Shown: positions 6,988-61,968, counted from the stretch's first letter. The stretch is 64,000 nucleotides of DNA from an uncultured Candidatus Saccharibacteria bacterium (GCA_964596875.1 CAZQVT010000001.1:42514-106513); one strand, 5' to 3'. Notes: a model not told the origin generated them from the letters alone. Program-made: numbers and translations.

Positions 6988-7020
6988 TTAACCGTTCCTT
7001 TCACCGCCCTAGGAGGCAGC

Positions 7021-7335
7021 ATGCAGAACTTCATGGTCAACGTCGTCACCTCGTCGGTTCAGTATCCCGTCGAGAATCCGAGGCTCGATCCGATCTTCGA
7101 CATGAACCAGACCATCCTCCTCCAGTTCGGGCCCTGCTCGAAGGCGGAGGGTGACGCTGTCGCGGACCGCATCAACGCATGGGTTCGTGGTGGCGAAGGT
7201 CGTGGTGCGGCTGAAGCCTTCCGTATTCTGGGACTGGATCAGAGAACGAAAGACGTCTGGGCATCCTGCGACGAAATCCCAACCGCGGGCATCTCGGAAC
7301 TCATCAAAAAGTTCCAGGTGGAAATCCCCGTTTGA
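7021..7335 (+). CDS. hypothetical protein, high-GC island gene (104 aa)
   Basis: AGGAGG RBS 7 nt upstream; GC3-rich codons (gtc/acc/tcg/ggc) unlike host; ORF track 6940..7335 extends upstream but ATG 7021 has the RBS. Confidence 0.5.
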   Translation: MQNFMVNVVTSSVQYPVENPRLDPIFDMNQTILLQFGPCSKAEGDAVADRINAWVRGGEGRGAAEAFRILGLDQRTKDVWASCDEIPTAGISELIKKFQVEIPV

Positions 7336-7526
7336 TCCACGTAACGATCCGTCTCTGGCGCGTCAGCCCAGTATCGTCCGAGGAAGTCATATATTCCTCG
7401 GACTTCCTTCAGAGAATTTAATTCTTAATTAAATGTTCTGAAGGAACGAACAGTTCCATCAAAGTAATTAAACTTTTGATTTCTTTGATGGGACAATTCC
7501 GTCCCTGTTCTTTTAGGAGGTTACCG

Positions 7527-7715
7527 ATGAAAGTTTACATCGTCATGCAGCAGGACCCACACGGAGAGGGTTCGCAGATCATGGGGGTGTACTTGGATAA
7601 GGCGAAAGCCGATGCCGAGGCCGCTGCCATGGTTCACACCATTGCCGTGGACGACGAGGGGCAGGATGTGGAGGTGTGCACTGGAGGTGTGGTAGAGCAT
7701 GAGGTAATCGAGTAA
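7527..7715 (+). CDS. hypothetical small acidic protein, high-GC island gene (62 aa)
   Basis: TTTTAGGAGGttaccgATG RBS; GC3-rich codons; MKVYIVMQQDPHGEG... Confidence 0.45.
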   Translation: MKVYIVMQQDPHGEGSQIMGVYLDKAKADAEAAAMVHTIAVDDEGQDVEVCTGGVVEHEVIE

Positions 7716-7911
7716 GGTAAGTCGTCAGTCTCATTAGGTAACTGACGTAAAAGGGAGTTAAGCTACCCGCCTGCCATGGCAAAGTGCTGATGACCTGAAT
7801 CGGGCGCTCGGAGAGATCCAGCGCCTTTTCGTTTGTAAGAAATACTACTAACAAAATTTTGTTGAGCCATAATTTTTATGGAACATCGCGGAGTGAGTGA
7901 ATAGTGAGTGA

Positions 7912-7978
7912 GAAATGACGCGTATCATTTCGCAAGACCTTGAGCACGAAGTAGCGAAAGGTGTACAGAGTCTGTAAG
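7912..7978 (+). repeat. repeat family R2/R3 copy a: hairpin GAAATGAcgcgtaTCATTTC + GCAAGACCTT ... AAGGTGTACAGAGTCTGTAAG
   Basis: hairpin+GCAAGACCTT shared with 33436.., 43550.., 29685..(rc); AAGGTGTAC...CTGTAAG shared with 33505.., 43618.., 60253.. Confidence 0.55.
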
Positions 7979-8077
7979 ACTCGAAGAAAATTTCTAGCGA
8001 GAAATTATTCTGTTTCCAGAAAAGTTATGGCGAGAAAGAAATTTTGTGTCGCAGATTTAGTTTGATACAATTAAGCA

Positions 8078-9771: not shown

Positions 9772-9810
9772 ACTCACCTTACTATTTGTAAGGCTCGTTC
9801 TCAAAATCTC
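9772..9810 (+). repeat. R4 hairpin module CTCACCTTACtattTGTAAGGCTCGTTCTC downstream of FAD oxidoreductase
   Basis: CCTTAC/GTAAGG inverted repeat plus conserved flanks also at 927.., 25286.., 42759.., 46266.. Confidence 0.5.
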
Positions 9811-10536: not shown

Positions 10537-10607
10537 TTACAAAAAGTCCCCGCAAGGGGATTTTTTGTAAGTAAGGTTATGAATTCCCGTCTAAAAATAG
10601 TATAATA

Positions 10608-11981
10608 ATGAGCATGCTTAAACGGTTATTTTTCTATGCATTTTTTGTTTTAGTTTGTGTTTTTGGCATGCATACTGTAAAAGTTGCGGCTATTACTCCT
10701 GAAGAACAAGAAGCAATTTGGAAGGCTGAACTGGCGCAGACAGAGGCCGACATAGCTAAATGGCAGGATATTCTAAATGGCACAAAAGCCAATACAAAGT
10801 CTCTTCAAAATGAGGCTGCAATACTGAACGCTAAAATAAAACAAGCTCAGGCAACTATCAAACAAAAAACCATTAATATTGAACAGATAGGTAAACAGAT
10901 AAAAGATAAACAGAAGACAATTTTAAGTTTGGAACAGCGAATAGAAAAAGGTCATGAATCCCTAGCGCAACTAATAAGGAAAACAAATGAGATAGACGAG
11001 TATTCCCTTCCAGAAGTGATACTTGGAAACCAAGATATTTCAGAATTTTTTTCAGATGTAGATTCATTTCAGTCAATAAAAAAAGATTTACAAGTTTTGT
11101 TTAATGAAATACGCGATAATAAAAAAACAACAGAAAAAGAAAAAGAAGCACTAGATAAGGCGCAGGATAAAGAAGAGGATACAAAAGCTGCCGTAGAGTC
11201 ACAAAAAAAAGAAGTAGAGAAAAATGAAAAGGAGAAACAGTATCTAATACAGGTAAATAAAACACAAGAAAAAACATACGAGCAGGTTATATCTGAAAGA
11301 CAAAAGAAAGCCGGGGAAATACGGGCAAAATTGTTTAACTTTGCTGGTGGTGCCGGACCAATACCTTTTGGTGATGCAGTGGCTTATGCACAAGAAGCGT
11401 CTGTTGTAACTGGAGTTAGACCTGCACTAATACTTGCTACTCTGAAGCATGAAACTAATCTAGGTCAAAATATTGGTTCTTGTATTATTACTAATCTTGA
11501 GACTGGTGATGGAATATTTTCAAAAACTCAGAAGCCTGTTAAGGGTATCGTAAAGGCTGACAGAGACATTGCTCCTTTTCTAGATATCACATCTAGACTT
11601 GGTTTAGACTATGCGAAAACTATAGTTTCTTGTCCGATTGCTGGAGGTGGTTGGGGTGGAGGAATGGGACCTTCGCAGTTTCAACCATCTACTTGGATAG
11701 GTATTGAATCCAGAGTCGCAAACATGCTAGGTGTTAGTATTGCTAACCCATTTAGACCAAAAGATGCTATTTTTGCTACGGCACTATTTTTGAAAGATTT
11801 GGGCGCTGGTACCCAGGTGTATTCTGACGAACAAAATGCGGCTTGTAGGTACAACTCTGGAAGAAAATGCGCACAAGCACCGGCATTTAGTAAGGCCTAC
11901 GGTAAAAACATAATGAGTTTGGCATCTGGTATTCAGGCAGATATAGACTACATAGCTCAGTACGGAGTTTCCAGAAGATAA
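10608..11981 (+). CDS. secreted coiled-coil protein with C-terminal lytic-transglycosylase-like (SLT_2/MltB-like) domain
   Basis: N-terminal signal/TM, long heptad-rich region, C-terminal GGGMGPSQFQPSTW resembling the MltB AMGPMQFMP motif. Confidence 0.45.
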   Translation: MSMLKRLFFYAFFVLVCVFGMHTVKVAAITPEEQEAIWKAELAQTEADIAKWQDILNGTKANTKSLQNEAAILNAKIKQAQATIKQKTINIEQIGKQIKDKQKTILSLEQRIEKGHESLAQLIRKTNEIDEYSLPEVILGNQDISEFFSDVDSFQSIKKDLQVLFNEIRDNKKTTEKEKEALDKAQDKEEDTKAAVESQKKEVEKNEKEKQYLIQVNKTQEKTYEQVISERQKKAGEIRAKLFNFAGGAGPIPFGDAVAYAQEASVVTGVRPALILATLKHETNLGQNIGSCIITNLETGDGIFSKTQKPVKGIVKADRDIAPFLDITSRLGLDYAKTIVSCPIAGGGWGGGMGPSQFQPSTWIGIESRVANMLGVSIANPFRPKDAIFATALFLKDLGAGTQVYSDEQNAACRYNSGRKCAQAPAFSKAYGKNIMSLASGIQADIDYIAQYGVSRR

Positions 11982-16352: not shown

Positions 16353-16473
16353 TTGAGCCACCTTGTCTCCTGGGAAACCCACGGTTTTCCCAATCCTTCC
16401 TCCACGGGAAACTCCCGTTTCCCGACCCCTTCCCTCTGACAGGAAAAAACTCACACTGCGTGTGAGTTTTTTT

Positions 16474-16548
16474 GGAGCCACCTGTCAGGCTTGAACTGAC
16501 GACCTGCTGTTTACAAAACAGCTGCTCTACCAACTGAGCTAAGGTGGC
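16474..16548 (-). tRNA. tRNA-Thr (anticodon UGU)
   Basis: rc reads GCCACCT-TA-GCTC-AGTTGGTA-GAGC-A-GCTGT-TTTGTAA-ACAGC-AGGTC-GTCAG-TTCAAGC-CTGAC-AGGTGGC-TCCA; all four stems pair, encoded CCA. Confidence 0.8.
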
Positions 16549-22508: not shown

Positions 22509-22526
22509 GGGCTTTTTCACTAAAAA

Positions 22527-22641
22527 TTTTTTCAGACCGCTCGTTCCGCCTGCGCTTCACTCACTTTGTCCTCAACCCAAATCCGTCAAGAACGGGGTGC
22601 CTTGACGGAACCAAGCTTTGGGTTTGCGGAGTCATCAAAAA
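22527..22641. repeat. 115-nt intergenic repeat, copy B (family R1)
   Basis: TTTTTCAGACCgctc...ATCCGTCAAGAACGGGGTGCCTTGACGGAACCAAGCTTTGGGTTTGCGGAGTC; aligns along full length with 6732..6846. Confidence 0.7.
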
Positions 22642-22742
22642 GTTTTAGTTCAACGCAACACAAATACAATAATTTTTTTACATACAAAAACCCCTGACCT
22701 GGCCCCACATATTGCGTGGGGCTCCTGGCCGGGGCGCGCGAG

Positions 22743-23012
22743 TTAGTTACTCGCATGGTATGAGGTGTAGAGTGGTGGGTTTCTGCAGATCTCGAACCTC
22801 ATCTCGAGATCCTGGTACTTCTTGTTCAGGTTGTTATACTTTCCTCCGATGTCTTCAAGGATGCCTCGTTGCTGGTCCAGCACCACACTAAGTGCTTCTG
22901 AGCTTTGCTTGAGCTCCTTGATCTCTTCGAGGTTGGGGTACGACCACGCAGTGACACTTACTCCCACTGCGATTCCGAGACTGAACACGAGGCCTACTGC
23001 GAGGTATCTCAT
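22743..23012 (-). CDS. small secreted/membrane-anchored coiled-coil protein, GC-enriched island gene (89 aa)
   Basis: GGAGaaagtgtccATG RBS; signal-like MRYLAVGLVFSLGIAVGV; own TTGACA promoter at ~23045-23075 (minus) and hairpin terminator 22700-22725; ORF track extends to 23060 but internal start has the RBS. Confidence 0.45.
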   Translation of the reverse strand: MRYLAVGLVFSLGIAVGVSVTAWSYPNLEEIKELKQSSEALSVVLDQQRGILEDIGGKYNNLNKKYQDLEMRFEICRNPPLYTSYHASN

Positions 23013-23144
23013 GGACACTTTCTCCATGCAATACTGTAATGTATTTTGTGTAATTGTCAATATGGTATTGTACTAAATTTGCTTGTTTGTACCCTTAAAA
23101 TTTGCTATAATTTGCAAGTAAAATTAACTAAAAATACTTTAAAT

Positions 23145-25241
23145 ATGGCCAAGGAAACAGGGAAGAAAAAAGATAGTTACGGAGCGGATGCGATACAGAT
23201 TCTAGAGGGTCTTGAGCCTGTTAGAAAGCGTCCTGGAATGTACATTGGTACAACTGGTCTAGATGGTTTACATCACCTTATTTGGGAAATTTTTGACAAC
23301 TCTCGTGACGAAGCCATGGGAGGTTTTGCAAATGATATCGAAGTTACTCTTCTCCCAGGAAACAGAATCCGAGTTACCGACAACGGACGAGGTATTCCTG
23401 TAGATATTCACAAACAAACAAAAGTTTCAGCACTTGAAACTATCATGACAACACTTCACGCTGGAGGAAAGTTCGGAGGTGAAGACGGAGGTTACAAAGT
23501 TTCTGGAGGACTCCACGGTGTGGGTGCATCTGTAGTAAACGCACTTTCTATTTACTGTAAAGTAACAGTTCACAAAACTGGTGATGGTATATACATGCAA
23601 GAGTATTCACAAGGAAAGAAAAAAGCTTCTGTAAAAAAAGTTGGTTTAACAAAGAAAAATGGAACTATTGTAGTGTTTGAACCAGATCCTGCTATTTTCC
23701 CAATCATAGATTTTTCATTCAAAAGAGTTGTAGACCATTTGCGACAACAAGCATACCTTGTAAAAGGTCTACGCATTACTGTAAACGATGCTTCTGAATA
23801 TGAGGGTAAAATAAAAGAAGATGAAGTTTTCAAAATCTCTGAACTTGGACTAGAAATACCTTCAATGTCTTTCTATTTCGAAGGAGGACTTTTGTCTTTG
23901 GTTAAGTTTATAAACCACGACCAGAAACCTATTCACAAAAATGTTTTCTATGTAGAGAAGAAAACAAACGAATACGAGTCAGTAGAGGTGTCACTACAGT
24001 ATGTAGACGACATCGCTTGTAGACTTTCTGCTTTTGCAAACAACATATACAACCCAGAAGGTGGAACACACGTGACTGGTTTCAAAACTGCGCTTACTCG
24101 TATCCTAAACTCATACGGAAGAAAAAATAACCTAATAAAAGAATCAGAGGATAACTTTACTGGTGACGACGTGCTAGAAGGTCTAACAGCAGTTATCTCT
24201 GTAAAACTTCGAGAAGTTCAGTTCGAAGGTCAGACAAAGGCAAAACTTGGAACAGTAGAAGCACAGTCTTCTGTAAACACTATTTTCTCTGAAGCATTTG
24301 GTACTTTCCTAGAAGAAAACCCAGATGATGCAAAAGCAATCATAAACAAAGTTGTTTTGGCACTAAAGGCACGAAAAGCTGCAAAGGCTGCAAAAGATTC
24401 TGTACTTAGAAAAGGTGCTCTAGAAGGTATGACACTTCCAGGAAAACTTGCAGACTGTCAGTCAAAGTCTGCAGAAGATTCTGAACTGTTCATTGTGGAG
24501 GGAGACTCTGCGGGAGGTACGGCAAAAACTGGTCGTGACAGACGAACACAGGCGATACTTCCTTTGCGAGGTAAAATCCTAAACATTGAAAGAGCAAGAC
24601 TAGACCGACTACTAGAGTCAGAACAAATCAAAAACCTTGTTATTGCGCTAGGAACTGCTATTGGAGATACGTTTGATATTTCTAAACTGCGATACCACAA
24701 AGTTATTATTGCAACCGATGCCGACGTGGACGGTGCTCACATCCGAACTCTTATTTTAACTTTGTTATACAGATATTTCCGACCACTTATTGACGGAGGA
24801 TTTATCTACATCGCTCAACCACCTCTATACAAAATAAAGAAAGGTAAAGAAGTTTTCTATGCATATTCTGACGAAGACAAAGACAAGATTGTTGGCAAAG
24901 CAGATATTTCTGAAATCTCAGAAGTAGAAAGTATGTCAGATGATGAAGAAGAGGAGGATGAGGATTCCGCCGGAGGCAATAAGGCCGGTGAGGCGAAAGC
25001 TTCGAATGCAAAGCCGAAGACAGCGAAAATAAATATTCAAAGATACAAAGGTCTTGGAGAAATGAACTCAGAGGAGTTGTGGGAAACAACCATGGATCCT
25101 GCAAGAAGAATCCTAAAACAAGTTACTGTAGACAGTAGTGTTTCTGCAGACAAAGTATTTGATGTCCTTATGGGTACGGATGTTCCAGCGAGAAAATCAT
25201 TTATTCAGTCTAACGCTACAAAAGCAAACCTGGATATATAA
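23145..25241 (+). CDS. gyrB: DNA gyrase subunit B
   Basis: SYGADAIQILEGLEPVRKRPGMYIG, GHKL ATPase, TOPRIM EGDSAGG, C-terminal acidic insertion; promoter TTGTTT-17-tgcTATAAT upstream. Confidence 0.9.
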   Translation: MAKETGKKKDSYGADAIQILEGLEPVRKRPGMYIGTTGLDGLHHLIWEIFDNSRDEAMGGFANDIEVTLLPGNRIRVTDNGRGIPVDIHKQTKVSALETIMTTLHAGGKFGGEDGGYKVSGGLHGVGASVVNALSIYCKVTVHKTGDGIYMQEYSQGKKKASVKKVGLTKKNGTIVVFEPDPAIFPIIDFSFKRVVDHLRQQAYLVKGLRITVNDASEYEGKIKEDEVFKISELGLEIPSMSFYFEGGLLSLVKFINHDQKPIHKNVFYVEKKTNEYESVEVSLQYVDDIACRLSAFANNIYNPEGGTHVTGFKTALTRILNSYGRKNNLIKESEDNFTGDDVLEGLTAVISVKLREVQFEGQTKAKLGTVEAQSSVNTIFSEAFGTFLEENPDDAKAIINKVVLALKARKAAKAAKDSVLRKGALEGMTLPGKLADCQSKSAEDSELFIVEGDSAGGTAKTGRDRRTQAILPLRGKILNIERARLDRLLESEQIKNLVIALGTAIGDTFDISKLRYHKVIIATDADVDGAHIRTLILTLLYRYFRPLIDGGFIYIAQPPLYKIKKGKEVFYAYSDEDKDKIVGKADISEISEVESMSDDEEEEDEDSAGGNKAGEAKASNAKPKTAKINIQRYKGLGEMNSEELWETTMDPARRILKQVTVDSSVSADKVFDVLMGTDVPARKSFIQSNATKANLDI

Positions 25242-25285
25242 CTTCCAAATTTAGCGAACTCCTCGTTCTCGAGTTTCAAAATGTT

Positions 25286-25320
25286 CGTCACCTTACTACC
25301 TGTAAGGCTTCTCACATTTT
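25286..25320 (+). repeat. R4 hairpin module TCGTCACCTTACtaccTGTAAGGCTTCTCACATTTT downstream of gyrB
   Basis: shares GCGAACTCCT upstream and TCGGATTTCATCTAAAT downstream boxes with copy at 42730-42830. Confidence 0.5.
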
Positions 25321-43529: not shown

Positions 43530-43549
43530 AAAGTTTTGTTTTCCGGTGA

Positions 43550-43639: not shown

Positions 43640-43732
43640 AAATCATAAAAAAATAGAGGAGTGGAAACTAGGTAAAGGCAAAAAATAACTCCTACAGAAA
43701 AACCCGCGAGTGCGACAGAGTTTCTCTGCCGC

Positions 43733-43912: not shown

Positions 43913-44037
43913 ATGGCCTCCTTATCCACCTGCAATTAATATACAGTAAATACTGTATATTGTCAAATTTGAGAAAGGCCGCGCTCCTCTCGGTTCGCGG
44001 CCTTGTTCGGGTGGGGGACTTTCTCGTCCCCGCCGGT

Positions 44038-44421
44038 TTACTTCTTTCGCTTCTTCCTCGCTTTCTGCTTGCGCGCACTTCCGATAGTAGTGCTGCTACC
44101 CAGCCACCGTTTGGGACTGAGTTTGGCGAGTTCCATCACGCACATGAAGGCGTAGATGGTGACATCGCCCACATGCTTGAACGAGTCGAGGTCCCAACAC
44201 TTGACCGCCTTGGCCATCGCCCCGACTGTCTTGTACTGGGAGTAGTGTCTCTTCACCACCTTGTTCAGGCGGGTGACGGCGGAGGTGTGTCCGCACTCGA
44301 GCTTCTGGTTCACCTGCCGGCGAGTCAGTTTGAACTCTCCGATGGTTAGAACCACCGCGTTCTGTCTGTCGGCGTAGGCCTTGCTTACCGGATGTCTGAA
44401 ACCCTCACTCTTCCTCGGCAT
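44038..44421 (-). CDS. hypothetical basic protein with KKRKK C-terminus, high-GC island gene (127 aa)
   Basis: CGGAGGGcatcaacgaATG RBS; consensus promoter TTGACA-aatatgttgtatgtgc-TATAAT at 44430-44480 (minus); GC3-rich. Confidence 0.45.
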   Translation of the reverse strand: MPRKSEGFRHPVSKAYADRQNAVVLTIGEFKLTRRQVNQKLECGHTSAVTRLNKVVKRHYSQYKTVGAMAKAVKCWDLDSFKHVGDVTIYAFMCVMELAKLSPKRWLGSSTTIGSARKQKARKKRKK

Positions 44422-44524
44422 TCGTTGATGCCCTCCGATTAGTATTATAGCACATACAACATATTTGTCAAGTATAAAATATAACAAATTGTTTTGAATT
44501 TTTTATATCTGTTACAATGTTTCA

Positions 44525-46219
44525 ATGCTTCAGTCACAGGCTTTAGATATATTAAAAATGGGTAAAAATGTTTTTCTAACTGGCCCTGCCGGTTCAGGAA
44601 AAACTTTTGTTATAAACGAGTATGTAAAATATTTGCGTGAACACGCTGTGGATGTTGCCGTGACTGCATCTACTGGTATCGCTGCCACACATATCGGTGG
44701 TATGACTATACACTCGTGGTCTGGTCTTGGAATACGCGACACTTTGACTGACTATGACATAGACGACCTCATGGAGCGACAATATTTGTATAAAAGATTT
44801 AACAAGACAAAAGTTTTGATTATTGACGAGGTTTCAATGCTACACAACTTTCGTTTAGACCTTATTGAGTGGATCTGTCGACAGATGAAGCATAGCGAAA
44901 AACCTTTTGGTGGTATGCAGATTATTTTGTGTGGAGATTTTTTTCAGTTGCCACCAGTAACTCGTAGTGGAAACGTAAGATTTACAGACGAACCTTTTGG
45001 ACAAACAGTAGAGTCTGAGTTTGCATACAAGTCACAGAGTTTTCTTTCATCGCAGTTTGTTGTTTGTTATCTAGAGGAACAGCACAGACAAAAAGACAAT
45101 ACATATTTGGGTATCCTAAACCAGATTCGTGAAAACAGAGTTTCGTCTCGAACAATGGAACTTTTGAAATCTAGAATAAACGTCGCAACCGATGTTTCTG
45201 GAAACGCGACTAGGCTCTATACCCACAATATAGATGTAGATGCTGTAAACAAAAAACATCTAGATCTAATTTCTGCAACATCAAAAAAGTTTTATATGAA
45301 AAGTCATGGCTCTGGAGGTTTGGCAGAAACTTTGAAAAAAAGTTGTCTGTCGCCAGAAGAGTTGGAACTAAAAGTCGGCGCGAAAGTAATGTTTACAAAA
45401 AACCATCCCGAAGGTTTGTATGTAAATGGAACTTTGGGTGTTGTAAAAGAGTTCAACTCTTTTGGTGAGCCTGTAGTGGTTACGACAGGTGGTATGGAAA
45501 TATCTGTGGTTGAACAGTCTTGGAAAATAGAAGAAGAAGGAAAAGTAAAAGCAGAAATCTCCCAGTATCCTTTGCGTTTGGCGTGGGCGATAACAGTTCA
45601 CAAAAGTCAGGGAATGTCACTCGACAGTATGGAAGTAGATCTTTCAAAATCTTTTGTAAAAGGTATGGGCTATGTGGCATTGTCTCGTGTTCGTTCACTA
45701 GAAGGCATGAAACTTTTAGGTTTCAACGAAATGTCGCTTTTGGTAGACCCTGAAGTTTTGGATATGGATAAAAAGTTCAGAGACCTTTCGGTAGACGCTG
45801 TAAACGACTTGAAAGATTTAAGTAAAAAACAAATAGTGGAAGCACAGAGTGCGTGGCTTAAAAAAATCGAACCAGAAGAAAAAGTAAAAATAAAAAAGAA
45901 AGAAAAAGAACTGAAAAAAAGTACTCACGAGATAACTTTAGAAATGCTAGAAAATGAAACTCCTTTGTCGCAGATAGCAAAAGCTCGTGGTGTAAAGGAG
46001 GAAACCATAGTTTCACATATAGAAGACTTGAAGGCAGAAAACAAATGTCCAGATGTGAACTATCTAAAAAGGGAACTAAAGCGTGGGGAACTAGACGACA
46101 TTTTGGATGCTTTTCATGACTGCAACACAACTACTCTTGCTCCCGTTTACAACTACCTAATTCGCAAAAAGAAGAAGCCGAATTATCTAAAGATACGTAT
46201 AGCCCGCCTATTCCTGTAA
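44525..46219 (+). CDS. PIF1/RecD-family ATP-dependent DNA helicase with C-terminal HTH-like domain
   Basis: GKNVFLTGPAGSGKTF Walker A, IIDEVSMLH Walker B, ITVHKSQGMSLD motif typical of PIF1/RecD2 helicases; 564 aa. Confidence 0.75.
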   Translation: MLQSQALDILKMGKNVFLTGPAGSGKTFVINEYVKYLREHAVDVAVTASTGIAATHIGGMTIHSWSGLGIRDTLTDYDIDDLMERQYLYKRFNKTKVLIIDEVSMLHNFRLDLIEWICRQMKHSEKPFGGMQIILCGDFFQLPPVTRSGNVRFTDEPFGQTVESEFAYKSQSFLSSQFVVCYLEEQHRQKDNTYLGILNQIRENRVSSRTMELLKSRINVATDVSGNATRLYTHNIDVDAVNKKHLDLISATSKKFYMKSHGSGGLAETLKKSCLSPEELELKVGAKVMFTKNHPEGLYVNGTLGVVKEFNSFGEPVVVTTGGMEISVVEQSWKIEEEGKVKAEISQYPLRLAWAITVHKSQGMSLDSMEVDLSKSFVKGMGYVALSRVRSLEGMKLLGFNEMSLLVDPEVLDMDKKFRDLSVDAVNDLKDLSKKQIVEAQSAWLKKIEPEEKVKIKKKEKELKKSTHEITLEMLENETPLSQIAKARGVKEETIVSHIEDLKAENKCPDVNYLKRELKRGELDDILDAFHDCNTTTLAPVYNYLIRKKKKPNYLKIRIARLFL

Positions 46220-46265
46220 AAACTCCAAATTTGGCTAATCTCATCGTCTAAATTTTACAAATCTT

Positions 46266-46292
46266 CCTCACCTTACTATCTGTAAGGCTTGT
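46266..46292 (+). repeat. R4 hairpin module CCTCACCTTACtatcTGTAAGGCTTG downstream of helicase
   Basis: CCTTAC/GTAAGG inverted repeat; downstream ATACGCGACCTT box also at 34885. Confidence 0.5.
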
Positions 46293-46376
46293 CATATTTG
46301 TAAAATTTATACGCGACCTTATCTCAAATTTTTAGTTTTTTAAGAACGATATTCGATAGTGTGGTAAAATTGTATT

Positions 46377-47342
46377 ATGAAAAAGGTATACCTTCTCCCT
46401 CTACTTTTACTTTTTGTATATGGTGTGGTTTCTGAACCACTACACTTTGATAAGTATTTTGAAAAAAGTTACCCGAGTGTTTTAAACTTTGGTGATGTTA
46501 TGTTTGACCGGGGTGTGAGAAACATAATAGAGAACCGAGGTCGCGACCCTTTTGAATACATTAAAAAAGACTTGGGACAATTTTCCGACTACGATATAAA
46601 AATAGTAAACCTCGAAGGTCCAATAGTTACTATGGACCGGGCGCTATGTCAGCAAAAAGCATACAACTTTCAGTTTGCAGACGACGCGACGGACAGACTA
46701 AAAAGTATTGGTATAAACATGGTAAACATAGCCAACAACCATAGCTACGACTGTTACGAACAAGGTTTTGAAAATACAAAAAAAGTTTTGGCGAAGGTGG
46801 GGATAGACTACATGGGCGATAGTGTTTTGGAAAAAAGTTTTGTAGTAAAAGTAGTAGATGGTAAAGAAATTGCCTTTGTTGGGATAGATGAAACTGTTGC
46901 GCGAGTTCCTGTGTCAGAGTTTTACTCTCTTGTGAAAAAATTAAAATCCGAAAATGATTTGGTGGTGGTAGATATACACTGGGGTACAGAATACATTTTG
47001 ACATCAAACCAAAACCAAAAAGACATTGCACACATACTAGTAGAAAGTGGTGCAGATGTTATTTTTGGTCACCACCCACATGTAGTAGAGGAACTGGAAG
47101 TGTACAAAGGCAAGGCAATATTTTATTCACTTGGGAACTTTGTTTTTGACCAAAACTTTGGCGACACTATGGTGGGCCTAGGTGTTGGCGCGCAGTTTAA
47201 GGAAGACAAAACTGTTTTCACTTTGTACCCGTTCAATATAAAAGTATTTGCTCCTGATTTAATGAAAGAAGAAGAAAAAGAAAGTTTTTGTAAAAAGTTT
47301 CTGGCAGGGTTTAATGCTCATGGTTGCAGTTTAACTATTTGA
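46377..47342 (+). CDS. CapA/PGA_cap-family metallophosphatase-like protein (poly-gamma-glutamate capsule synthesis family)
   Basis: signal/TM N-terminus, NFGDVMFDRG, ANNHSYD, HWGTEY, GHHPHV motifs; 321 aa. Confidence 0.65.
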   Translation: MKKVYLLPLLLLFVYGVVSEPLHFDKYFEKSYPSVLNFGDVMFDRGVRNIIENRGRDPFEYIKKDLGQFSDYDIKIVNLEGPIVTMDRALCQQKAYNFQFADDATDRLKSIGINMVNIANNHSYDCYEQGFENTKKVLAKVGIDYMGDSVLEKSFVVKVVDGKEIAFVGIDETVARVPVSEFYSLVKKLKSENDLVVVDIHWGTEYILTSNQNQKDIAHILVESGADVIFGHHPHVVEELEVYKGKAIFYSLGNFVFDQNFGDTMVGLGVGAQFKEDKTVFTLYPFNIKVFAPDLMKEEEKESFCKKFLAGFNAHGCSLTI

Positions 47343-47425
47343 TAAAATATATAAAGTGTGTTATTGTAACTCTCGCTACTTTTACGACATAAAGTCGATA
47401 CTTGCTAGCATGGAGTTCTTTCTCA

Positions 47426-48295
47426 ATGATGAAGCGTCTGCTCCTCCCCGTCTTCACCGCGATCCTCATGATGCCGTCGCTCGGCTTCGCTCAGGGCACC
47501 GTCGTCTTCTCGAACCTGCCGTCGCCCACGCCGGGCAACATCCCGTCCTTGGGCTACCAGTGCTGCTCGGTCTCCGAGTTCGGCGACCGCGTGCACCTCG
47601 AGGCCGACACGCCCCGGCGTGCCAGCAGCGCGACGGTTCTGATGTCGTCGTGGTCGCTCCACTCGAACTACCCGACGATGTCCGCGGCCGGCTACAAGCA
47701 CCCGATCACGCTCGCGGTCTACGCGAACGACGCGGCGGCCCTGGCGCATTCGCCCTTGGCAACCGTGACCCAGATGATGGACATCCCGTGGCGGCCCGAG
47801 GCCGACCCGACCTGTCCCGGCGGGACGGCATGGCGCGCAACGAACGGCCAGTGCTACAACGGCATGGCCTTCACGCTCACGTTCGACCTGCGCAGTCTGA
47901 ACCTCACGCTCCCGGACGAGTTCGTCTGGGGTGTGGCGTACAACACGCAGACCTGGGGCTACAACCCGCTCGGCGTCGCCGGCCCGTACGAGTCGCTCAA
48001 CGTCGGCACGACCGCTTCGGCGCCGTCAGTCGGCGTCGATGTGGATCCGGACGTGGCGTACGTCAACTACGCCGTGGCGGGGTTCTACTCCGACCTCGGC
48101 GCGGGTGGCACGAACACCTTCCGCGCCGATACGGCATGGACGGGATTCGCTCCCTCGGCGGAGTTCACCACGGTTGCCGTTCCGGCGACCACCGGTGAGT
48201 GCAAGAACGGAGCCTGGCAGAACCTGGTCCGGCGTGACTTCACGCCGTTCAAGAACCAGGGAGCCTGCGTCTCCTACGTCAACACCGGCAAGTAG
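47426..48295 (+). CDS. secreted hypothetical protein, very high-GC island gene (~65% GC, 289 aa)
   Basis: signal peptide MMKRLLLPVFTAILMMPSLGFAQG; extreme GC3 bias (ccg/ggc/acg/gtc); followed by CGGCGGTCCtcagGGACCGCCGCTTTTTTAT terminator. Confidence 0.5.
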   Translation: MMKRLLLPVFTAILMMPSLGFAQGTVVFSNLPSPTPGNIPSLGYQCCSVSEFGDRVHLEADTPRRASSATVLMSSWSLHSNYPTMSAAGYKHPITLAVYANDAAALAHSPLATVTQMMDIPWRPEADPTCPGGTAWRATNGQCYNGMAFTLTFDLRSLNLTLPDEFVWGVAYNTQTWGYNPLGVAGPYESLNVGTTASAPSVGVDVDPDVAYVNYAVAGFYSDLGAGGTNTFRADTAWTGFAPSAEFTTVAVPATTGECKNGAWQNLVRRDFTPFKNQGACVSYVNTGK

Positions 48296-48321
48296 CCGGC
48301 AACAACACCAGTCATCGGGAA

Positions 48322-48357
48322 GATGTCCGGCGGTCCTCAGGGACCGCCGCTTTTTTA
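48322..48357 (+). terminator. rho-independent terminator
   Basis: GTCCGGCGGTCCTCAGGGACCGCCGCTTTTTTATAAA. Confidence 0.7.
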
Positions 48358-48401
48358 TAAAATAGGAAATGAATTTGTGTTGTATTTATTATATAGAACC
48401 C

Positions 48402-48430
48402 ATAGTGTCAAAGAGTCTCTTTGACACTAT
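48402..48430. repeat. perfect 29-nt palindrome ATAGTGTCAAAGAGtcTCTTTGACACTAT (REP-like) at 3' end of transposase gene
   Basis: self-complementary; second copy of core at 49041..49063. Confidence 0.8.
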
Positions 48431-49031
48431 AGTTCAAGGTTTCATGCTTAAAATCATTAATATTTTTAAATTTATTAAGAACAAAATCAGTTGTTATGAA
48501 TGAAAGGTTTCTGTTTTTTAAATAATCATTGTAACTACTCCAAATATATTTATAAGGGTTATCAGTAATTTTATCTTTTACTGGATTCATATGAATATAT
48601 GCAGTTGTCCATAAGAGTTGCGAGTCACTTTCAATCATTGTTGCTTTAAAACAGTCCTGAAATAGATGCCCAATTTTTTTGTATTTTTGATTTATGTACT
48701 TTGAATAACTCGTACAGACTTTCGAAACCAATTTTGAAATGGGCACGTCACTTAACTGTTCTATTAATAAATGAAAATGATTTGGCATTAGACAAAATGC
48801 GTGAATCTGAAATTGATTCTTGGCACCATAAATCCTAATTCTTGAAAATGGAACCGTAGTTAGATTATTTTTATTTAATTCTTTTGAATCTATTCCGAGA
48901 GCGAGCCCAAGTCTATATAGAAATGCTCTATAATCTTGTGGGTCTAAAAATATTCTTTCTTTATTATTTCCTCTATTGTAAATATGAGCTACTATACCCT
49001 GATCAAAATTTTTATAGTCCCTTTTGTTCAT
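48408..49031 (-). mobile_element. IS200/IS605-family Y1 (HuH) transposase, REP-associated tyrosine transposase (RAYT)-like
   Basis: HuH motif LMPNHFHLLIE and catalytic-Tyr motif TAYIHMNPV (RAYT YIHxNPV); 207 aa; flanked by palindromes at both ends. Confidence 0.7.
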
Positions 49032-51988: not shown

Positions 51989-52010
51989 TTTAGGGTGGTA
52001 TAATTAATAT

Positions 52011-52379
52011 ATGAAAACAAATAGATTAAAATACTCATTTATTTTTTTATTAGTCATCGCTATTTCTTATTATATAAATATTGAAACGAACACAAGACTT
52101 TTAAGAAAACTTAGCGAATTCACATTCTGGATGAGTTTTTCAGTTTTTGTCATTTCAGTTATATCTGTCTTTATAAAAGAAAACGCATATCTTGCCTGGA
52201 AAAAGTTTACAAATTATTATCTAGCATTTGCAGTCCTAGTTATACTAATAACTCCTACATCAACTCATGGTATGGATTTCTTTCCGATAGTTAAAGAAAC
52301 AGTCACTGTAGCATTGTCTATTTTGTATGCTGGAATTTCACTTCCTCTTATCGTTTACAAATCATTCAAAATGGACTAG
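52011..52379 (+). CDS. hypothetical membrane protein (3-4 TM)
   Basis: 122-aa hydrophobic ORF. Confidence 0.4.
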   Translation: MKTNRLKYSFIFLLVIAISYYINIETNTRLLRKLSEFTFWMSFSVFVISVISVFIKENAYLAWKKFTNYYLAFAVLVILITPTSTHGMDFFPIVKETVTVALSILYAGISLPLIVYKSFKMD

Positions 52380-54453: not shown

Positions 54454-54502
54454 GTTTGATTTTGGGGAAGTTTTGTGGGTAAATACTGTGTGGGGAGGTG
54501 GC

Positions 54503-54721
54503 ATGGGGCTCATCGCTAATCTCGTTTCGTGGTCTGAGGCTGTGTCGTGGGTGTGGCAGGTGTTGCCCGGATGGGCACAGAAGTACCTGATCTTCCACAT
54601 CTGCTGTGTGGCGGCGTGTACCATCTGGGTCTGTAACAGCTACCGAACGACTCGCAGGTTGCCTCAGAACTACAAAGTTCTGGGTGACCCGTACAAGGTG
54701 CAGCTTCCGAACGTGAAGTAG
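54503..54721 (+). CDS. small hydrophobic protein, high-GC island gene (72 aa)
   Basis: GGGGAGGtggcATG RBS; ORF track start 54473 lacks RBS; GC-rich versus flanks. Confidence 0.4.
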   Translation: MGLIANLVSWSEAVSWVWQVLPGWAQKYLIFHICCVAACTIWVCNSYRTTRRLPQNYKVLGDPYKVQLPNVK

Positions 54722-55005
54722 TCTCGGCCTCGACTGTTGTTGTGCAAAAGGTGTGTGTCGTTACGGCACCGCCTTTTTGTTATACAAAAATAAAAAGTGA
54801 TATAATCTAGATATGACAAACAGAACAACAAAAAATAGTTTTACTACATTAAACACAGGTAGCAAAAAAAGTGGAAAGAGTATGAGTATAAAACCGAAAA
54901 TGAAAGGTAAGGCACCACGACCAAGCAGAACTAACGGATAAAATAAAAACTTGTGATATAATATTTTGTATAAATTATTAAAATTATTATTTAACTAAAT
55001 AAAAT

Positions 55006-56820: not shown

Positions 56821-56831
56821 AATCTAAAACA

Positions 56832-56864
56832 AAAACCTCGCAGATATGCGAGGTTTTTGTTTGC
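56832..56864. terminator. bidirectional terminator AAAAACCTCGCAGATATGCGAGGTTTTTG
   Basis: perfect stem CCTCGCA/TGCGAGG with A and T runs. Confidence 0.7.
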
Positions 56865-56936
56865 AAAATTTTGTATAAAGAAAAAGCCGGCGGTCCCCAA
56901 CGAATGGGGACCCCGACTTGTGCGCTTGTTGCCGAC

Positions 56937-57143
56937 CTACTGGCTCGCCTCGACCTTGTACTCGGCCGTCAGGCCACGGACGTAGCCGAGCTGGGCCGAG
57001 ACGGCGTTGAGGCGGGGGACGCTCGGGTCCTTCCACGGCTCGTTGCCGAACATCGGCGGCTCGACGGCCCCCATGGCGACGATCGCGGGATCGACGATGG
57101 CGGGCATTCCGAAGTGCAACTGACGGCTCTGCTGCTTTGACAT
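56937..57143 (-). CDS. hypothetical protein, high-GC island gene (68 aa), divergent from lexA promoter
   Basis: AAGGAGtgacaccgcATG RBS; promoter TTGACA-gatgcagtatagtgtgc-TAAGAT at 57165-57195 (minus); hairpin terminator 56880-56915. Confidence 0.45.
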   Translation of the reverse strand: MSKQQSRQLHFGMPAIVDPAIVAMGAVEPPMFGNEPWKDPSVPRLNAVSAQLGYVRGLTAEYKVEASQ

Positions 57144-57257
57144 GCGGTGTCACTCCTTAACGTACATCTTAGCACACTATACTGCATCTGTCAAGTATAA
57201 AATAAAGAGAAAATTTTATGAAATGAAACTTTTCCACAGTTTTATTTTGCTGTTTAT

Positions 57258-59924: not shown

Positions 59925-60194
59925 ATGAAAAAAGAAATTAAAACATTTACTGAAAAAGTTAAGGACGTGGTAAGAAAAATACCCCGTGGAAAAACTATGA
60001 CTTATGCAGAAGTGGCCAAAAAAGCAGGTAGTCCTGGAGCATCCCGTGCTGTGGGAAGTATTATGAAAGCGAACTTCGACCCAAAGATTCCGTGTCACAG
60101 AGTCATCCGTTCGGATGGAAAAGTTGGGGAGTACAACAGAGGTGGAAGCTCAAAAAAACTCGCTCTACTCAAAAAGGAAGGTTGGAAACAGTAG
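59925..60194 (+). CDS. ogt: methylated-DNA-protein-cysteine methyltransferase, short DNA-binding/active-site domain only (Ogt/MGMT C-terminal domain)
   Basis: IPCHRVI (PCHR active site) and preceding helix-turn-helix; 89 aa from internal ATG. Confidence 0.6.
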   Translation: MKKEIKTFTEKVKDVVRKIPRGKTMTYAEVAKKAGSPGASRAVGSIMKANFDPKIPCHRVIRSDGKVGEYNRGGSSKKLALLKKEGWKQ

Positions 60195-60206
60195 GAACTA
60201 TTTCCA

Positions 60207-60274
60207 AAAGCTTTTCAGATATTTTATGAGTCTGGCGAAGTAAAATATCGAAAAGGTGTACTGCTCCTGTAAGG
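60207..60274 (+). repeat. repeat family R3 copy d: TTTTCAGATATTTTATGAG...CGAAGTAAAATATCG-AAAAGGTGTACTGCTCCTGTAAGG
   Basis: ~90% identical over ~70 nt to 33467..33526. Confidence 0.6.
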
Positions 60275-60349
60275 AGGGGGCTATGAGCTACTTTTATTAA
60301 ATAATAGGCGATAGTATAATAAAGTACATTATAAATAGTCTTAAAAAAT

Positions 60350-60898
60350 ATGAGTAATAAAGTTATTGCAGTTGTGGTGGGAGTGGTTGTAGTTCTGGGC
60401 GGAGCATATTATGCAATGAGAGGAACTTCTACAGAAGTTCCAAATACAAACTCTATTGCAGTGGGTGAACCAAATCCTAGTACACCAAGTGAAAATACTT
60501 CAGGAAAGAAAATGTCATTTGATGCATTTCTAAAACAAGGAGGTTCATATGTCTGTACAGTTAACCAGTCTGTAGAGGGAATCGACAGTAAAGGTACAGT
60601 ATACGTAAATGCTGGAAATGTTCGTGGAGATTTTTCTACGACAGTTTCAGGTATGAATATTTCTACAATGTTTTTGGTGAAGGATGGTTTTTCTTACACT
60701 TGGTCAAACATGATGCAGGGCAAGGGTTACAAAGTACCAGTAAATGCATCTGGTAGTGGAAATACTTCCGCTGGAACATCTGGTCAGTATAGTTGGAATG
60801 CAGAACAAATAGGTGATTATGATTGCAAGCCTTGGAGCGCGGACGCATCAAAGTTTGCAATGCCTAGTAGTGTAGTTTTTACTGAGGTTAAAAATTAA
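60350..60898 (+). CDS. secreted hypothetical protein (N-terminal TM anchor)
   Basis: 182-aa ORF with signal-anchor and Ser/Thr/Gly-rich mature part. Confidence 0.4.
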   Translation: MSNKVIAVVVGVVVVLGGAYYAMRGTSTEVPNTNSIAVGEPNPSTPSENTSGKKMSFDAFLKQGGSYVCTVNQSVEGIDSKGTVYVNAGNVRGDFSTTVSGMNISTMFLVKDGFSYTWSNMMQGKGYKVPVNASGSGNTSAGTSGQYSWNAEQIGDYDCKPWSADASKFAMPSSVVFTEVKN

Positions 60899-60915
60899 AA
60901 AATTAATTTAAAAAA

Positions 60916-61314
60916 ATGATAACAATTCTTATCGCAGCGGTAGCAGCATTTGTTTTCGGAGCATTTTGGTTCACAGTGCTTTTTGGTAAGGAGTGGGCAA
61001 GACTTAACGACTTTAATCCTGCTAGTGACGAAAGAGCAAAACAACTAGGCATGGCAAAGCCTTTGTTTGCAAACTTTCTTTCAAATGTGCTAGTGGCTAC
61101 AGTTTTCTACTACATGATAGACCAGATGTTGGTTTACTCATATGCAGGACTACTACGAGTAGTGTTTATTGTGTGGCTTGGCTTTAGTTTTCCAATATTT
61201 GCCAATGCAGCAATATGGGAAAGAAAGAGCTGGAAACTGGTTGCAATTAACTCTGCGCAAAACCTATTGGCGCTGGCTATTATTTCTGGAATCATTTTCA
61301 AAATGCATTACTAG
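60916..61314 (+). CDS. hypothetical membrane protein (4 TM)
   Basis: 132-aa hydrophobic ORF. Confidence 0.4.
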   Translation: MITILIAAVAAFVFGAFWFTVLFGKEWARLNDFNPASDERAKQLGMAKPLFANFLSNVLVATVFYYMIDQMLVYSYAGLLRVVFIVWLGFSFPIFANAAIWERKSWKLVAINSAQNLLALAIISGIIFKMHY

Positions 61315-61393
61315 GTCCCAGACTATATACTATATATAAGCAGAGCCGCCCCGAAGTCCTTGCTAGGACCTCGGGGCGTGTTCGTTGGGGGAC

Positions 61394-61588
61394 TCAGATC
61401 CTCCCCATCAGGATATCGCGTTGAATGAAGGCGTGCCGCACAGCGGTATTCAGGTTCCTTCCGAAACCGATGACAACTCGGTCCATCTTGTCGGTGAACC
61501 TGAAGTACCACCGCATGTTAGGTCCCTGGGGAGAGTTTCCCAGGTACCCGTAGTCACTCTTGGCTATCACTTCTTTGTTTACAACCAC
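61394..61588 (-). CDS. hypothetical protein, high-GC island gene (64 aa; GTG start)
   Basis: CTGGAGGGAGGtgagGTG RBS; GC-rich versus flanks; promoter-like TTGACT-17-TAGTCT at 61600-61640 (minus). Confidence 0.35.
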   Translation of the reverse strand: MVVNKEVIAKSDYGYLGNSPQGPNMRWYFRFTDKMDRVVIGFGRNLNTAVRHAFIQRDILMGRI

Positions 61589-61968
61589 CTCACCTCCCTC
61601 CAGCGCTCTGTAAAAAAGACTACCTATTTAAGGGCGGGGAGTCAAACCCGACTTTTTGGCCAGAAGTCAAACACAGTGTTAATAGTATGTGGATAAGTTT
61701 GTTGACTTTTGTTGACAAAAGTTAACCCTTGACATATACTCTTAGTTGCTTCACATGATTGAGTTTTGGCAGGGGCAAGATAGAATCTAGGGTTTATTCG
61801 GGGTTTAATAGTTCTATACTATTTTGCAGTTCAATCGCTAACAGTTTAAGAGTTTCAAAATAGCCATCCAATGCGGGGATGGTTCGTTTTGTTTGTCTTA
61901 AACTGAGGGTGACTGAAAGCACCTCGAGGTTTTCTTTTATTAATAGTAGGTGGGGTAAATATTATTTT

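Follow-up and report, generated by a model that had tools for sequence, protein, structure and literature searches.

Small GC-rich genes with Shine-Dalgarno sites between the core genes of an AT-rich bacterial chromosome

Why should a small, AT-rich bacterial chromosome carry short blocks of GC-rich DNA between its housekeeping genes? We addressed this question in a stretch of 64,000 nucleotides (contig CAZQVT010000001.1, positions 42514-106513, assembly GCA_964596875.1), called the window below, whose mean GC content is 39%. An initial annotation had described eleven such blocks as genes imported from a high-GC donor or as products of an undescribed cassette-shuffling system. We find 12 islands with 17 open reading frames (ORFs). 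It is probable, in our judgement, that they are small, horizontally derived accessory cassettes resembling the morons of phages, lying at operon boundaries and translated from Shine-Dalgarno (SD) sites in a host that is otherwise SD-less and mostly leaderless. In the following, I1-I12 denote the islands, a, b and c the ORFs inside one island, WIN the window, and L-numbers the comparison loci. Coordinates are collected in Table 1.

Composition and expression signals of the islands

GC profiles were computed in 100-bp and 300-bp windows, the background 300-bp windows having a mean of 0.373 (sd 0.037, maximum 0.483). All eleven blocks proved real, with sharp edges where the initial annotation had drawn them. 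The transcription units have a GC content of 0.52-0.67, which is z = 3.9-7.9 above background, and the 150-bp flanks have 0.23-0.51, mostly 0.25-0.45; in the sliding-window check of GC and of GC at third codon positions (GC3) that had been proposed, the islands stand clearly above their flanks. A twelfth island, I12, was absent from the earlier list. It is weaker and was masked by a false 5' extension of the dnaE ORF. Delimited from the ribosome-binding site to the terminator, the islands sum to 5.9 kb, or 9.2% of the window, with 57.8% GC versus 37.1% outside. They are spread across 55 kb on both strands at about one per 5 kb; each unit is 0.25-1 kb long, and per island there are between one and three ORFs, 59-289 aa in length and starting with ATG, GTG or TTG. 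The remaining GC-richer spots are ordinary, namely tRNA-Thr, a stretch within dnaE and two copies of an intergenic repeat. The islands occupy gaps between core genes, and the flanking genes are those originally named, now backed by Pfam: pheT, gyrB, thrS, RNase HII, L32, RNase III, SMC, TrmD, PIF1 helicase, CapA, Y1 transposase, SdrD-B, S24/LexA, DUF1761, Fba and FAD oxidase. The junctions at islands 7 and 1 were recovered in an independent Logan assembly of SRR12712864, on two short contigs that cover helicase-I7b-I7a-trmD-KH (L001) and fba to island 1 (L002).

The island ORFs are coding genes. GC by codon position bears out the claim that they use GC3-rich codons while flanking genes use AT-rich third positions: in 16 of the 17, GC3 is 0.55-0.93 and the second position (GC2) is the lowest, although by a margin of just 0.01 in I5b, and the core genes have a GC3 of 0.16-0.41. 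The weak case is I12, with GC1 and GC2 both 0.47 and GC3 0.54. Most SD-led frames follow the order GC3 > GC1 > GC2, and in all but I5b no other position exceeds GC3. The ratio of nonsynonymous to synonymous differences (pN/pS) was below 1 in all four families tested, being 0.21-0.41 for I7a, I7b and I8 and 0.67 for I6, compared to 0.08-0.30 for core genes.

Islands and core genes differ in how translation appears to start. GGAGG, GGAG or GAGG, with the start codon 5-10 nt downstream, precedes 16 of the 17 island ORFs, and the seventeenth, I3a, has GGGGGGG. At positions -20 to -4, an SD-like motif was found in none of 50 core genes as against those 16 island ORFs. The opposite was found for a TAnnnT box whose end lies 4-9 nt upstream of the start codon; such a box is present in 29 of the 50 core genes (16 of them at exactly 6 nt) and in no island ORF. 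The Fisher p value of the SD dichotomy, on an earlier count, is 2e-14. A TAnnnT box at 4-9 nt has the geometry of leaderless mRNAs, and the 29 core genes that carry it look leaderless. Signals that had been called host-type are so for the promoters, but not for the SD, in view of the count of zero in the core genes. In 434 kb made up of the window and close relatives, we counted 47 cases of GGAGG followed after 4-10 nt by ATG or GTG and a GC-rich ORF with 45 or more codons, as against 2-13 for four control pentamers. A looser screen gave 84 GC-rich SD-led ORFs in 25 loci, with a median length of 84 aa.

Leaderless-looking starts were seen across the whole window (for example 1001-1019, 5830-5848, 10592-10610, 44505-44527 and 52000-52013), and the absence of SD motifs from core genes extends to operon-internal genes.

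Promoter-like sites, defined as sigma-70-like with a match of at least 9/12 to the consensus, are correctly placed and oriented for nine of 14 units. Within the 40 kb scanned, just one site scores 12/12 and three score 11/12; the former and two of the latter are among them, and an additional 11/12 site precedes I1a. A GC-rich hairpin lies 3' of every unit, usually with a T-run; under a strict T-run definition this holds for islands 3, 4, 8, 9 and 10, and the other terminators were read from the sequence. In terminators of the host type, for example at 27344-27381 and 56827-56862, the stem is long and AT-rich and only its small core is GC. The full expression unit that had been claimed for every block stands as regards hairpin and, in 16 of 17 ORFs, SD, but a promoter-like site of at least 9/12 is found in those nine units only. 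In ortholog pairs (the I5b-I8 comparisons below), conservation covers the -35 and -10 boxes, the SD, the start codon and the terminator hairpins.

Turnover and static composition among relatives

A DnaE scan with one genome per species yielded 80 loci, all from metagenome-assembled genomes (MAGs) of Patescibacteria/Paceibacteria. The closest DnaE identities are 93% (L003), 86% and 84%, and a named Zambryskibacteria MAG has 81%. By these matches the host is placed in Paceibacteria (Parcubacteria), near Zambryskibacteria. Many of the closest MAGs (L003, L004, L006 and others) are labelled 'uncultured Candidatus Saccharibacteria'; since both DnaE identity and synteny group them with Parcubacteria/Zambryskibacteria, these labels look like automatic mis-assignments. 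Gene order is collinear with the relatives, core genes share 68-86% nucleotide identity, and the gaps in the alignments are the islands. About 25 related MAGs bear similar islands at roughly 2-3 per 10 kb, some of them on contigs as long as 480-560 kb.

Comparison with sibling genomes, which the initial annotation had suggested, showed that the islands vary at fixed intergenic sites. Seven relatives (L003, L004, L005, L009, L011, L025 and L044) have no more than an empty gap of 36-46 bp at the I4 site; the I12 site between dnaE and rnhB measures 23-66 bp in four (L004, L006, L008 and L044), the I2 site between pheT and gyrB 93-122 bp in three (L025, L044 and L067), and the rnc/smc gap 52-94 bp in four. 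In L003, the closest relative, sites 2 and 3 are occupied by unrelated GC-rich SD-led genes, I5a is missing, and I2, I3b, I3c and I4 have no counterpart. At thrS/dnaE it shares the promoter with the window, but two GC-rich SD-led ORFs of no relation to I3a-I3c lie behind it, the two genomes differing from the SD onward. A tblastn search of the islands against the relatives found only I5b in L003 plus a weak I5a match in L005. Clusters of gap ORFs are for the most part bound to one site, seldom being shared between sites.

Other islands are kept in place. The I5b orthologue in L003 has 56% identity and retains promoter and SD. At the smc/rnr site, WIN, L003 and L004 share a small GC-rich ORF on the minus strand, its promoter and terminator likewise homologous, with PGDxVxQ near the N-terminus; this I6 family is found there in L003, L004, L012, L044 and L090, with a GC3 of 0.55-0.71. 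The trmD/helicase site of L090 carries orthologues of I7b (72% amino acid identity) and I7a (66%). I8 has syntenic orthologues in L083 (85-87%) and L084 (68-69%).

These orthologues allowed us to compare synonymous divergence (dS) with that of neighbouring genes. Between WIN and L090, dS is 1.39 for the helicase, 1.86 for TrmD, 1.02 for RNase R, 0.97 for I7b and 0.70 for I7a; between WIN and L083 it is 1.40 for the helicase and 0.90 for I8. The range is thus 0.70-0.97 for I7a, I7b and I8 versus 1.0-1.9 for core genes; over I6, I7a, I7b, I8 and their flanks dS is about 0.7-1.7, which we took as equal. Identity at fourfold sites is alike in islands and flanks (0.43-0.51) and near the random expectation for their compositions. 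Given the similar dS and fourfold identity, the islands have diverged in step with the chromosome, most of their synonymous sites having been replaced in the process. The island proteins change no more slowly than the faster core proteins, and purifying selection on them is weaker (pN/pS of the L090 pairs is 0.41 for I7a and 0.31 for I7b).

Over this divergence GC3 has not moved. It is 0.77 in WIN and 0.79 in L090 for I7b, and 0.58 and 0.60 for I7a. For I8 it is 0.91 in WIN, 0.83 in L083 and 0.69 in the more distant L084, with 0.76-0.82 in donor-like copies and about 0.3 in the flanking genes. Of 111 fourfold sites of I8, 54 differ between WIN and L083, and 35 of these 54 are C<->G exchanges; in the helicase the commonest fourfold difference is A<->T. 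A simple F81-type estimate from the helicase data suggests that a neutral GC-rich insert would have reached a GC3 of about 0.5-0.6. The capA gene evolves similarly fast (66-69% identity), yet has a GC3 of 0.34, so fast protein evolution alone does not account for the GC of the islands. GC-richness also reaches the 3' untranslated regions (UTRs): that of I7b (43975-44037, minus strand; L090 4900-4965), with its two GC-rich hairpins, is near-identical at a dS of about 1 and conserved beyond its own ORF. GC3 is unchanged and gene-specific over a dS of about 1, and amelioration is absent. The units are held at a GC-rich equilibrium, for which selection on the mRNA or gene and very local GC-biased repair are the candidates. 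As opposed to an unameliorated leftover, we infer that the GC is held by selection on the mRNA or the gene.

Larger GC-rich genes were also seen at such sites in the relatives, so that the phenomenon is not limited to micro-ORFs. They comprise a peptidase S9/S15-like gene at GC 0.52, a 441-aa ORF (GC 0.55-0.58) between helicase and capA, and a family that is probably NUDIX by its sequence motifs (GC 0.45-0.55), kept across 13 MAGs. Their positions are L083 9270-11132, L084 2745-4070, L090 1283-2608 and the rnhB/rpmF gap of L014-L057.

Nature and origin of the islands

In the reading that we favour, the cassettes would accumulate at operon boundaries after horizontal acquisition. They would be transcribed by the host sigma-70 polymerase and translated via the SD, forming a separate SD-dependent expression class beside the AT-rich, SD-less, mostly leaderless host genes. 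The class extends through the lineage; its members have been gained, lost, replaced and duplicated at the same sites, and some have been kept until core synonymous sites are near saturation. All surviving cassettes would have an SD because GC-rich structured mRNAs probably need one, where normal initiation uses 5'-terminal or unstructured AU-rich starts.

It had been stated that no described element has this architecture. Phage morons are a precedent, having deviant GC, an own promoter and terminator, and a position between conserved genes (Cumby, Davidson & Maxwell 2012, PMC3594210). The islands share with morons of the HK97/HK022 type that they are independent, optional units of deviant GC, extra DNA between adjacent genes, usually with one small accessory gene and, in nine of 14 cases, with an own promoter-like site beside the terminator. 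They differ in lying in a cellular core chromosome, between housekeeping operons that are syntenic across Paceibacteria MAGs, the flanks being fba, pheT, gyrB, thrS, dnaE, rnhB, rpmF, rnc, smc, rnr, trmD, lexA and rpoB, with no phage structural genes and no phage or prophage location. Their density, the retention of several over a dS of about 1, and a mode of translation initiation other than the host's are further differences. They are moron-like in working, not morons in the strict sense. As far as we searched the literature, moron-like units at such density in a cellular genome of the Candidate Phyla Radiation (CPR), with compositional stasis, have not been described.

Other known systems resemble the islands in part. 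Chromosomal hot spots or islets are variable genes at fixed positions between syntenic core genes. Presence, absence and replacement at fixed sites are common to both, but the present units are tiny, very dense in a genome of about 1 Mb, without integrases or tRNA anchors, and do not ameliorate. Integron cassettes are likewise small, mostly single-gene and of unrelated content, and the thrS/dnaE site with different cassettes behind one promoter recalls them; the islands, however, have no attC/attI, IntI or tandem array, and most have their own promoter. Classical genomic islands or integrative elements exceed 5-10 kb, unlike these units, which also have no integrase and no tRNA or direct-repeat borders. 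As to translation, work on bS21 in Flavobacteria reportedly exemplifies a setting of anti-SD loss or occlusion. The SD-less translation of Parcubacteria and Bacteroidota (PMC9297842) resembles our case in that host genes go without SD beside a small strong-SD minority, whose translation could be under separate control; here that minority consists of GC-rich accessory cassettes and not of autoregulated ribosomal genes.

Several points weigh against the reading of moron-like cassettes. No promoter-like site of at least 9/12 was found for I1b, I4, I9, I11 and I12, five of the 14 units; for I4 and I9, transcription may instead run on from the gene before them, which in the case of I4 would be rnhB. 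About half of Parcubacteria are reported to have no anti-SD motif in 16S rRNA (Tsurumaki et al. 2022, PMC9297842), and if this lineage lacks it as well, SD-dependent translation needs another explanation. The 16S gene is absent from all 90 loci examined for the anti-SD, and the rplKAJL cluster, looked at for uL1, is not among the genes upstream of rpoB. The stasis is based on four gene families and near-saturated synonymous sites. I8 is the sole island with an identified outside source: 15 small island proteins had no tblastn match among INPHARED phages and PLSDB plasmids, and no close relative was found for I1a and I10 in JGI metagenome contigs or for I1b and I7b in IMG/VR. The same IMG/VR search gave none for P0126.

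Repeated recent import from high-GC donors, not yet ameliorated, was the main inference of the initial annotation; we regard it as unlikely, though it explains part of the data. The origin of I8 is its best case. I8 has 604 homologues, of which the named ones belong to Vicinamibacterales, Gemmatimonadaceae and Pyrinomonadaceae, and three located copies, P0010 (L085), P0013 (L086) and P0019 (L088), lie in loci of 67-68% GC with genes for TonB, outer-membrane proteins and TonB-dependent receptors. In a neighbour-joining tree of 61 I8 homologues the parcubacterial copies, which are also syntenic, form one clade with P0010 as sister, P0013 and P0019 being more distant. Because a single parcubacterial clade adjoins a Gram-negative copy, the tree points to one transfer from Acidobacteriota/Gemmatimonadota-like bacteria followed by vertical descent. 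The islands without a counterpart in L003, the sites empty in relatives (I4 in seven of them) and the GC3 of 0.93 in I10 also suit recent import. Acquisition from outside was thus correctly proposed for I8, nested as it is in a family of 67-68% GC genomes, but at the sensitivity of our searches no donor was traced for the small ORFs, which are probably foreign too. A single high-GC donor is not borne out either, given a GC range of 0.50-0.67. Nor is the import simply recent: I5b, I6, I7a, I7b and I8 have syntenic orthologues, I6-I8 with a dS similar to that of flanking core genes and with unchanged GC3, which contradicts recency for the conserved islands. The third positions of I8 in WIN are even more GC-rich than those of donor-like copies, and the F81-type estimate predicts a lower GC3.

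We give less credence still to the idea that the cassettes are a second expression class maintained by selection, GC-rich, leadered and SD-dependent, and kept compositionally foreign. Neighbours 100 bp apart would then sit at opposite synonymous equilibria (GC3 about 0.9 versus 0.3) over a dS of about 1, implying an undescribed force, for instance selection for mRNAs that only one ribosome state reads or that withstand AU-directed RNases or toxins. In its boldest form, signals and codons would be tuned to the GC-rich, SD-using bacteria that carry these episymbionts, and the cassettes would be effector genes working in the host or mimicking it.

There is a slim chance that a dedicated insertion or shuffling system, integron-like or driven by repetitive extragenic palindromic (REP) elements and their associated tyrosine transposase (RAYT), places promoterless SD-ORF-terminator cassettes behind resident promoters. 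Unrelated cassettes at the same sites in close relatives and the common promoter at thrS/dnaE, with cassettes differing from the SD on, would be expected of such a system. REP-like copies adjoin islands 1, 3, 12 and 7 (four of the five copies), a Y1/IS200-type (RAYT-like) transposase gene lies at 48408-49031 beside island 8, and a REP-like insertion has remodelled the 5' end of rnhB beside island 12; the islands themselves are unique sequences and not repeat copies. However, a repeat search of the window found no common sequence, attC-like site or flanking direct repeats at island borders, scanning window genes with Pfam gave no integrase, and the sole tRNA (16473-16548) is not next to any island. 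At their 3' ends the islands have terminator hairpins that bear no relation to one another. Overlap with the thrS promoter accounts for the promoter that site 3 shares with L003; a promoter duplication at the I4 site was considered and dropped, its alignment score being only 1-2 sd over a null of other promoters. Many cassettes have their own promoter in convergent gaps, for example I6, and repeats and islands may just gather in the few long intergenic gaps. Of the cassette shuffling first proposed, then, fast turnover at fixed sites was found, but no border motif, integrase or attC-like site; the REP-like repeats and the Y1 transposase keep a dedicated system a small possibility.

It is improbable that the GC-richness, whatever its origin, was created and is maintained by GC-biased gene conversion or a different mutational bias acting locally on accessory loci prone to recombination. 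Such a bias would fit the GC-richness of 3' UTRs as well as third codon positions, the gene-specific static GC3, and the fact that the sites are hot spots of gene turnover. But GC3 values of 0.9 and 0.3 within 100 bp go far above the magnitudes known for bacterial gene conversion, the edges match transcription units and not recombination tracts, capA remains AT-rich, and I8 is GC-rich already in its donors.

That the blocks are structured non-coding RNAs, with ORFs arising by chance in stop-poor GC-rich DNA, is very improbable. Overlapping ORFs on both strands do arise in such DNA, and whole units are more stably folded than shuffled sequences (z -2.4 to -5.5). This excess is due to the terminators, as the coding sequence (CDS) alone has a z of -2.1 to -2.2 in island ORFs compared to -2.5 in a core CDS, and for this reason structure was also dropped as a cause of island GC. 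Rfam had no match inside the islands even at E <= 0.5, tRNA-Thr being its only hit in the window, and the codon-position pattern of the SD-led frames, pN/pS below 1 and homologues at the protein level all speak for genes. Chimeric assembly or binning, in which high-GC fragments of other organisms were mis-joined into a CPR contig, has the abrupt switches of composition and nothing further in its favour, and is ruled out for practical purposes because relatives from many unrelated studies and assemblers bear comparable GC-rich micro-islands, orthologous ones with kept junctions among them, the Logan contigs give the same junctions independently, the NCBI contig that carries fba and L32 is 265,753 bp long, and the islands exactly fill intergenic gaps and carry AT-rich host-type promoters.

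If the islands are indeed moron-like cassettes, about 9% of a streamlined genome would consist of them, at nearly every operon boundary. CPR bacteria (Patescibacteria) account for a large part of bacterial diversity; their genomes are tiny, and a life on other microbes is assumed for them. Were the pattern general, GC3 together with SD would be a simple marker of accessory or interaction genes in these organisms, SD-dependent and leaderless translation could be compared in a natural system within one cell, and the GC stasis would challenge amelioration as a clock for horizontal transfer. What surprises most is the SD dichotomy together with the compositional stasis, both of which go beyond the initial annotation.

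Individual islands, their proteins and nearby repeats

Table 1. Islands, island genes and REP-like copies in the window (SD, Shine-Dalgarno sequence; TG, TG motif of the -10 region; TM, transmembrane segment; n/12, match of the promoter-like site to the consensus).
Feature	Coordinates	Strand	Properties
Island 1 promoter-like site	6898-6926	+	TTGACA-17-TATACT, 11/12, TG
Island 1	6898-7835	+	AT-rich hairpin leader 6940-6990; terminator hairpin about 7802-7835
I1a CDS	7021-7335	+	104 aa; SD 'taggagg'; GC 0.57 (z 5.4)
I1b CDS	7527-7715	+	62 aa; DUF7336; SD 'taggagg'; GC 0.55 (z 4.6)
Island 2	22692-23060	-	promoter-like site 23060-23033 (10/12); GC-rich terminator hairpin 22692-22735
I2 CDS	22743-23012	-	89 aa; N-terminal TM and coiled coil; GC 0.54, GC3 0.64
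Island 3	28913-29748	+	promoter-like site 28913-28940 (10/12), back-to-back with thrS promoter; terminator 29721-29748
I3a	28957-29160	+	67 aa; HTH_17
I3b	29162-29347	+	61 aa
I3c	29361-29594	+	77 aa; TM
Island 12	33005-33400	+	SD GGGGAGG; hairpin terminator; GC 0.47-0.49 (z 2.7, weak)
I12 CDS	33065-33343	+	TTG start; 92 aa; GC 0.49; Cys-rich N-terminus, basic tail
Island 4	34210-34548	+	SD 'cggaggg'; two GC-rich hairpins and T-run 34490-34548
I4 CDS	34225-34461	+	78 aa; GC 0.56, GC3 0.71
Island 5	36655-37254	-	promoter-like site 37254-37227 (9/12, TG); terminator hairpin 36655-36700
I5b CDS	36997-37209	-	70 aa
I5a CDS	36707-36988	-	93 aa; Cys-rich, basic
Island 6	39567-39912	-	promoter-like site 39912-39884 (9/12); terminator GGGCGG..CCGCCC and T-run 39567-39600
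I6 CDS	39619-39858	-	79 aa; GC 0.61
Island 7a	43697-43966	-	promoter-like site 43966-43938 (11/12); terminator 43697-43732
I7a CDS	43733-43912	-	59 aa; basic, helical
Island 7b	43975-44471	-	promoter-like site 44471-44444 (12/12 with TG); two conserved 3' hairpins 43975-44035
I7b CDS	44038-44421	-	127 aa; helical; GVGxxT helix-hairpin-helix-like motif, basic tail
Island 8	47339-48358	+	promoter-like site 47339-47367 (9/12, TG); terminator 48328-48358
I8 CDS	47426-48295	+	289 aa; signal peptide; GC 0.67, GC3 0.91 (z 7.9)
Island 9	54490-54778	+	SD 'ggggagg'; terminator 54755-54778
I9 CDS	54503-54721	+	72 aa; hydrophobic, Cys-rich; GC 0.57, GC3 0.77; no homologue found
Island 10	56886-57194	-	promoter-like site 57194-57166 (10/12, TG); SD 'aaggag'; terminator 56886-56925
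I10 CDS	56937-57143	-	68 aa; GC 0.66, GC3 0.93 (z 7.8)
Island 11	61341-61605	-	SD 'ggagggagg'; hairpin 61341-61385; GC 0.57, GC3 0.69
I11 CDS	61394-61588	-	GTG start; 64 aa
REP-like copy	7890-7990	+	
REP-like copy	29687-29720	-	partial
REP-like copy	33436-33535	+	
REP-like copy	43545-43645	+	
REP-like copy	60190-60280	+	

Only I3a (HTH_17) and I1b (DUF7336, phrog_3002) belong to Pfam or PHROGs families, one more than the single obvious family first recognised. The island proteins had also been said to show no similarity to each other; this stands except for I5a and I5b, which are weak tandem paralogues (29% identity over 65 aa). Among 66 island ORFs of the clade, Pfam sees only HTH, sigma-70 r4, ClpX and DnaJ zinc fingers, and DUFs. 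PADLOC anti-phage models matched none of the window island proteins and one of the 66 clade proteins (MzaA). We infer that the small proteins are DNA-binding, zinc-binding, membrane and secreted proteins for dealings with mobile elements or the host.

The I7b family is sparse, with 38 distant relatives among 1.84e9 representatives, which share a length of about 130 aa, a helical character, the GVGxxT motif and the basic tail. One of them sits among small ORFs beside NAMPT and NadM-Nudix genes, on a contig that we take to be phage-like. The structure model of I7b (mean predicted local distance difference test score, pLDDT, 82) had no significant match in the PDB. The same was true of the I8 model (pLDDT 87), a predicted secreted beta jelly-roll with weak Eph-LBD/CBM-like similarity.

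In island 1, the leaders of I1a and I1b (6940-7020 and 7455-7526), as read from the sequence, are alike, each with an AT-rich hairpin followed by GG(A/G)ACAATT(T/C)CGT...GTTC(C)TTT...TAGGAGG, and may represent a common regulatory leader or a duplicated unit. Island 3 has a GC content of 0.57, and its GC-rich 3' region includes the partial REP-like copy. For I11, a weak promoter, TTGACT-17-TAGTCT, was picked out by eye from the sequence only. The dnaE ORF that masked island 12 (29761-33249, minus strand, 1162 aa) is over-extended by about 90 codons; its true ATG start is at 32979 (MAPRFTHLHTHSHYSLL), and all 80 relatives align to it only from residue 15-229 on, most from about 85-95. The false extension overlaps island 12 on the opposite strand.

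The REP-like family, which also resembles miniature inverted-repeat transposable elements, has the pattern GTGAGAAGT..ACTTCGCAAGACC..variable hairpin..AAGGTGTAC-N4-CTGTAAGG. Within 33384-33566, a relic rnhB 5' end (ATGAAATATATTGCAGGAATAGACGAAGTG, 'MKYIAGIDEV') was seen at 33405-33435, where a REP-like element truncates it; aligned with the start of rnhB in L003 and L004, this relic scores 23 against a null of 6.7 +- 1.3. The live gene begins anew at 33566, its promoter and N-terminus both being new, and GGAATAGAYGARGTG is duplicated on either side of the element. Apparently the element inserted into the start of rnhB and the damage was repaired by duplication.

Two further repeats were observed. 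One, of about 125 bp, has two copies (6712-6850 and 22515-22640) with an 83% identical core, beside islands 1 and 2; it has terminal inverted ends (TTTTTCAGAC...GTCTGAAAAA), a central hairpin CCGTCAAG-AACGGGGTGC-CTTGACGG and no Rfam match. The other, with a CTCACCTTACTAYYTGTAAGGCT core, lies at 9773-9798, 25237-25324 and 46217-46304, downstream of the FAD oxidase, gyrB and helicase genes, and was found also at several places in L003, L004 and L009.

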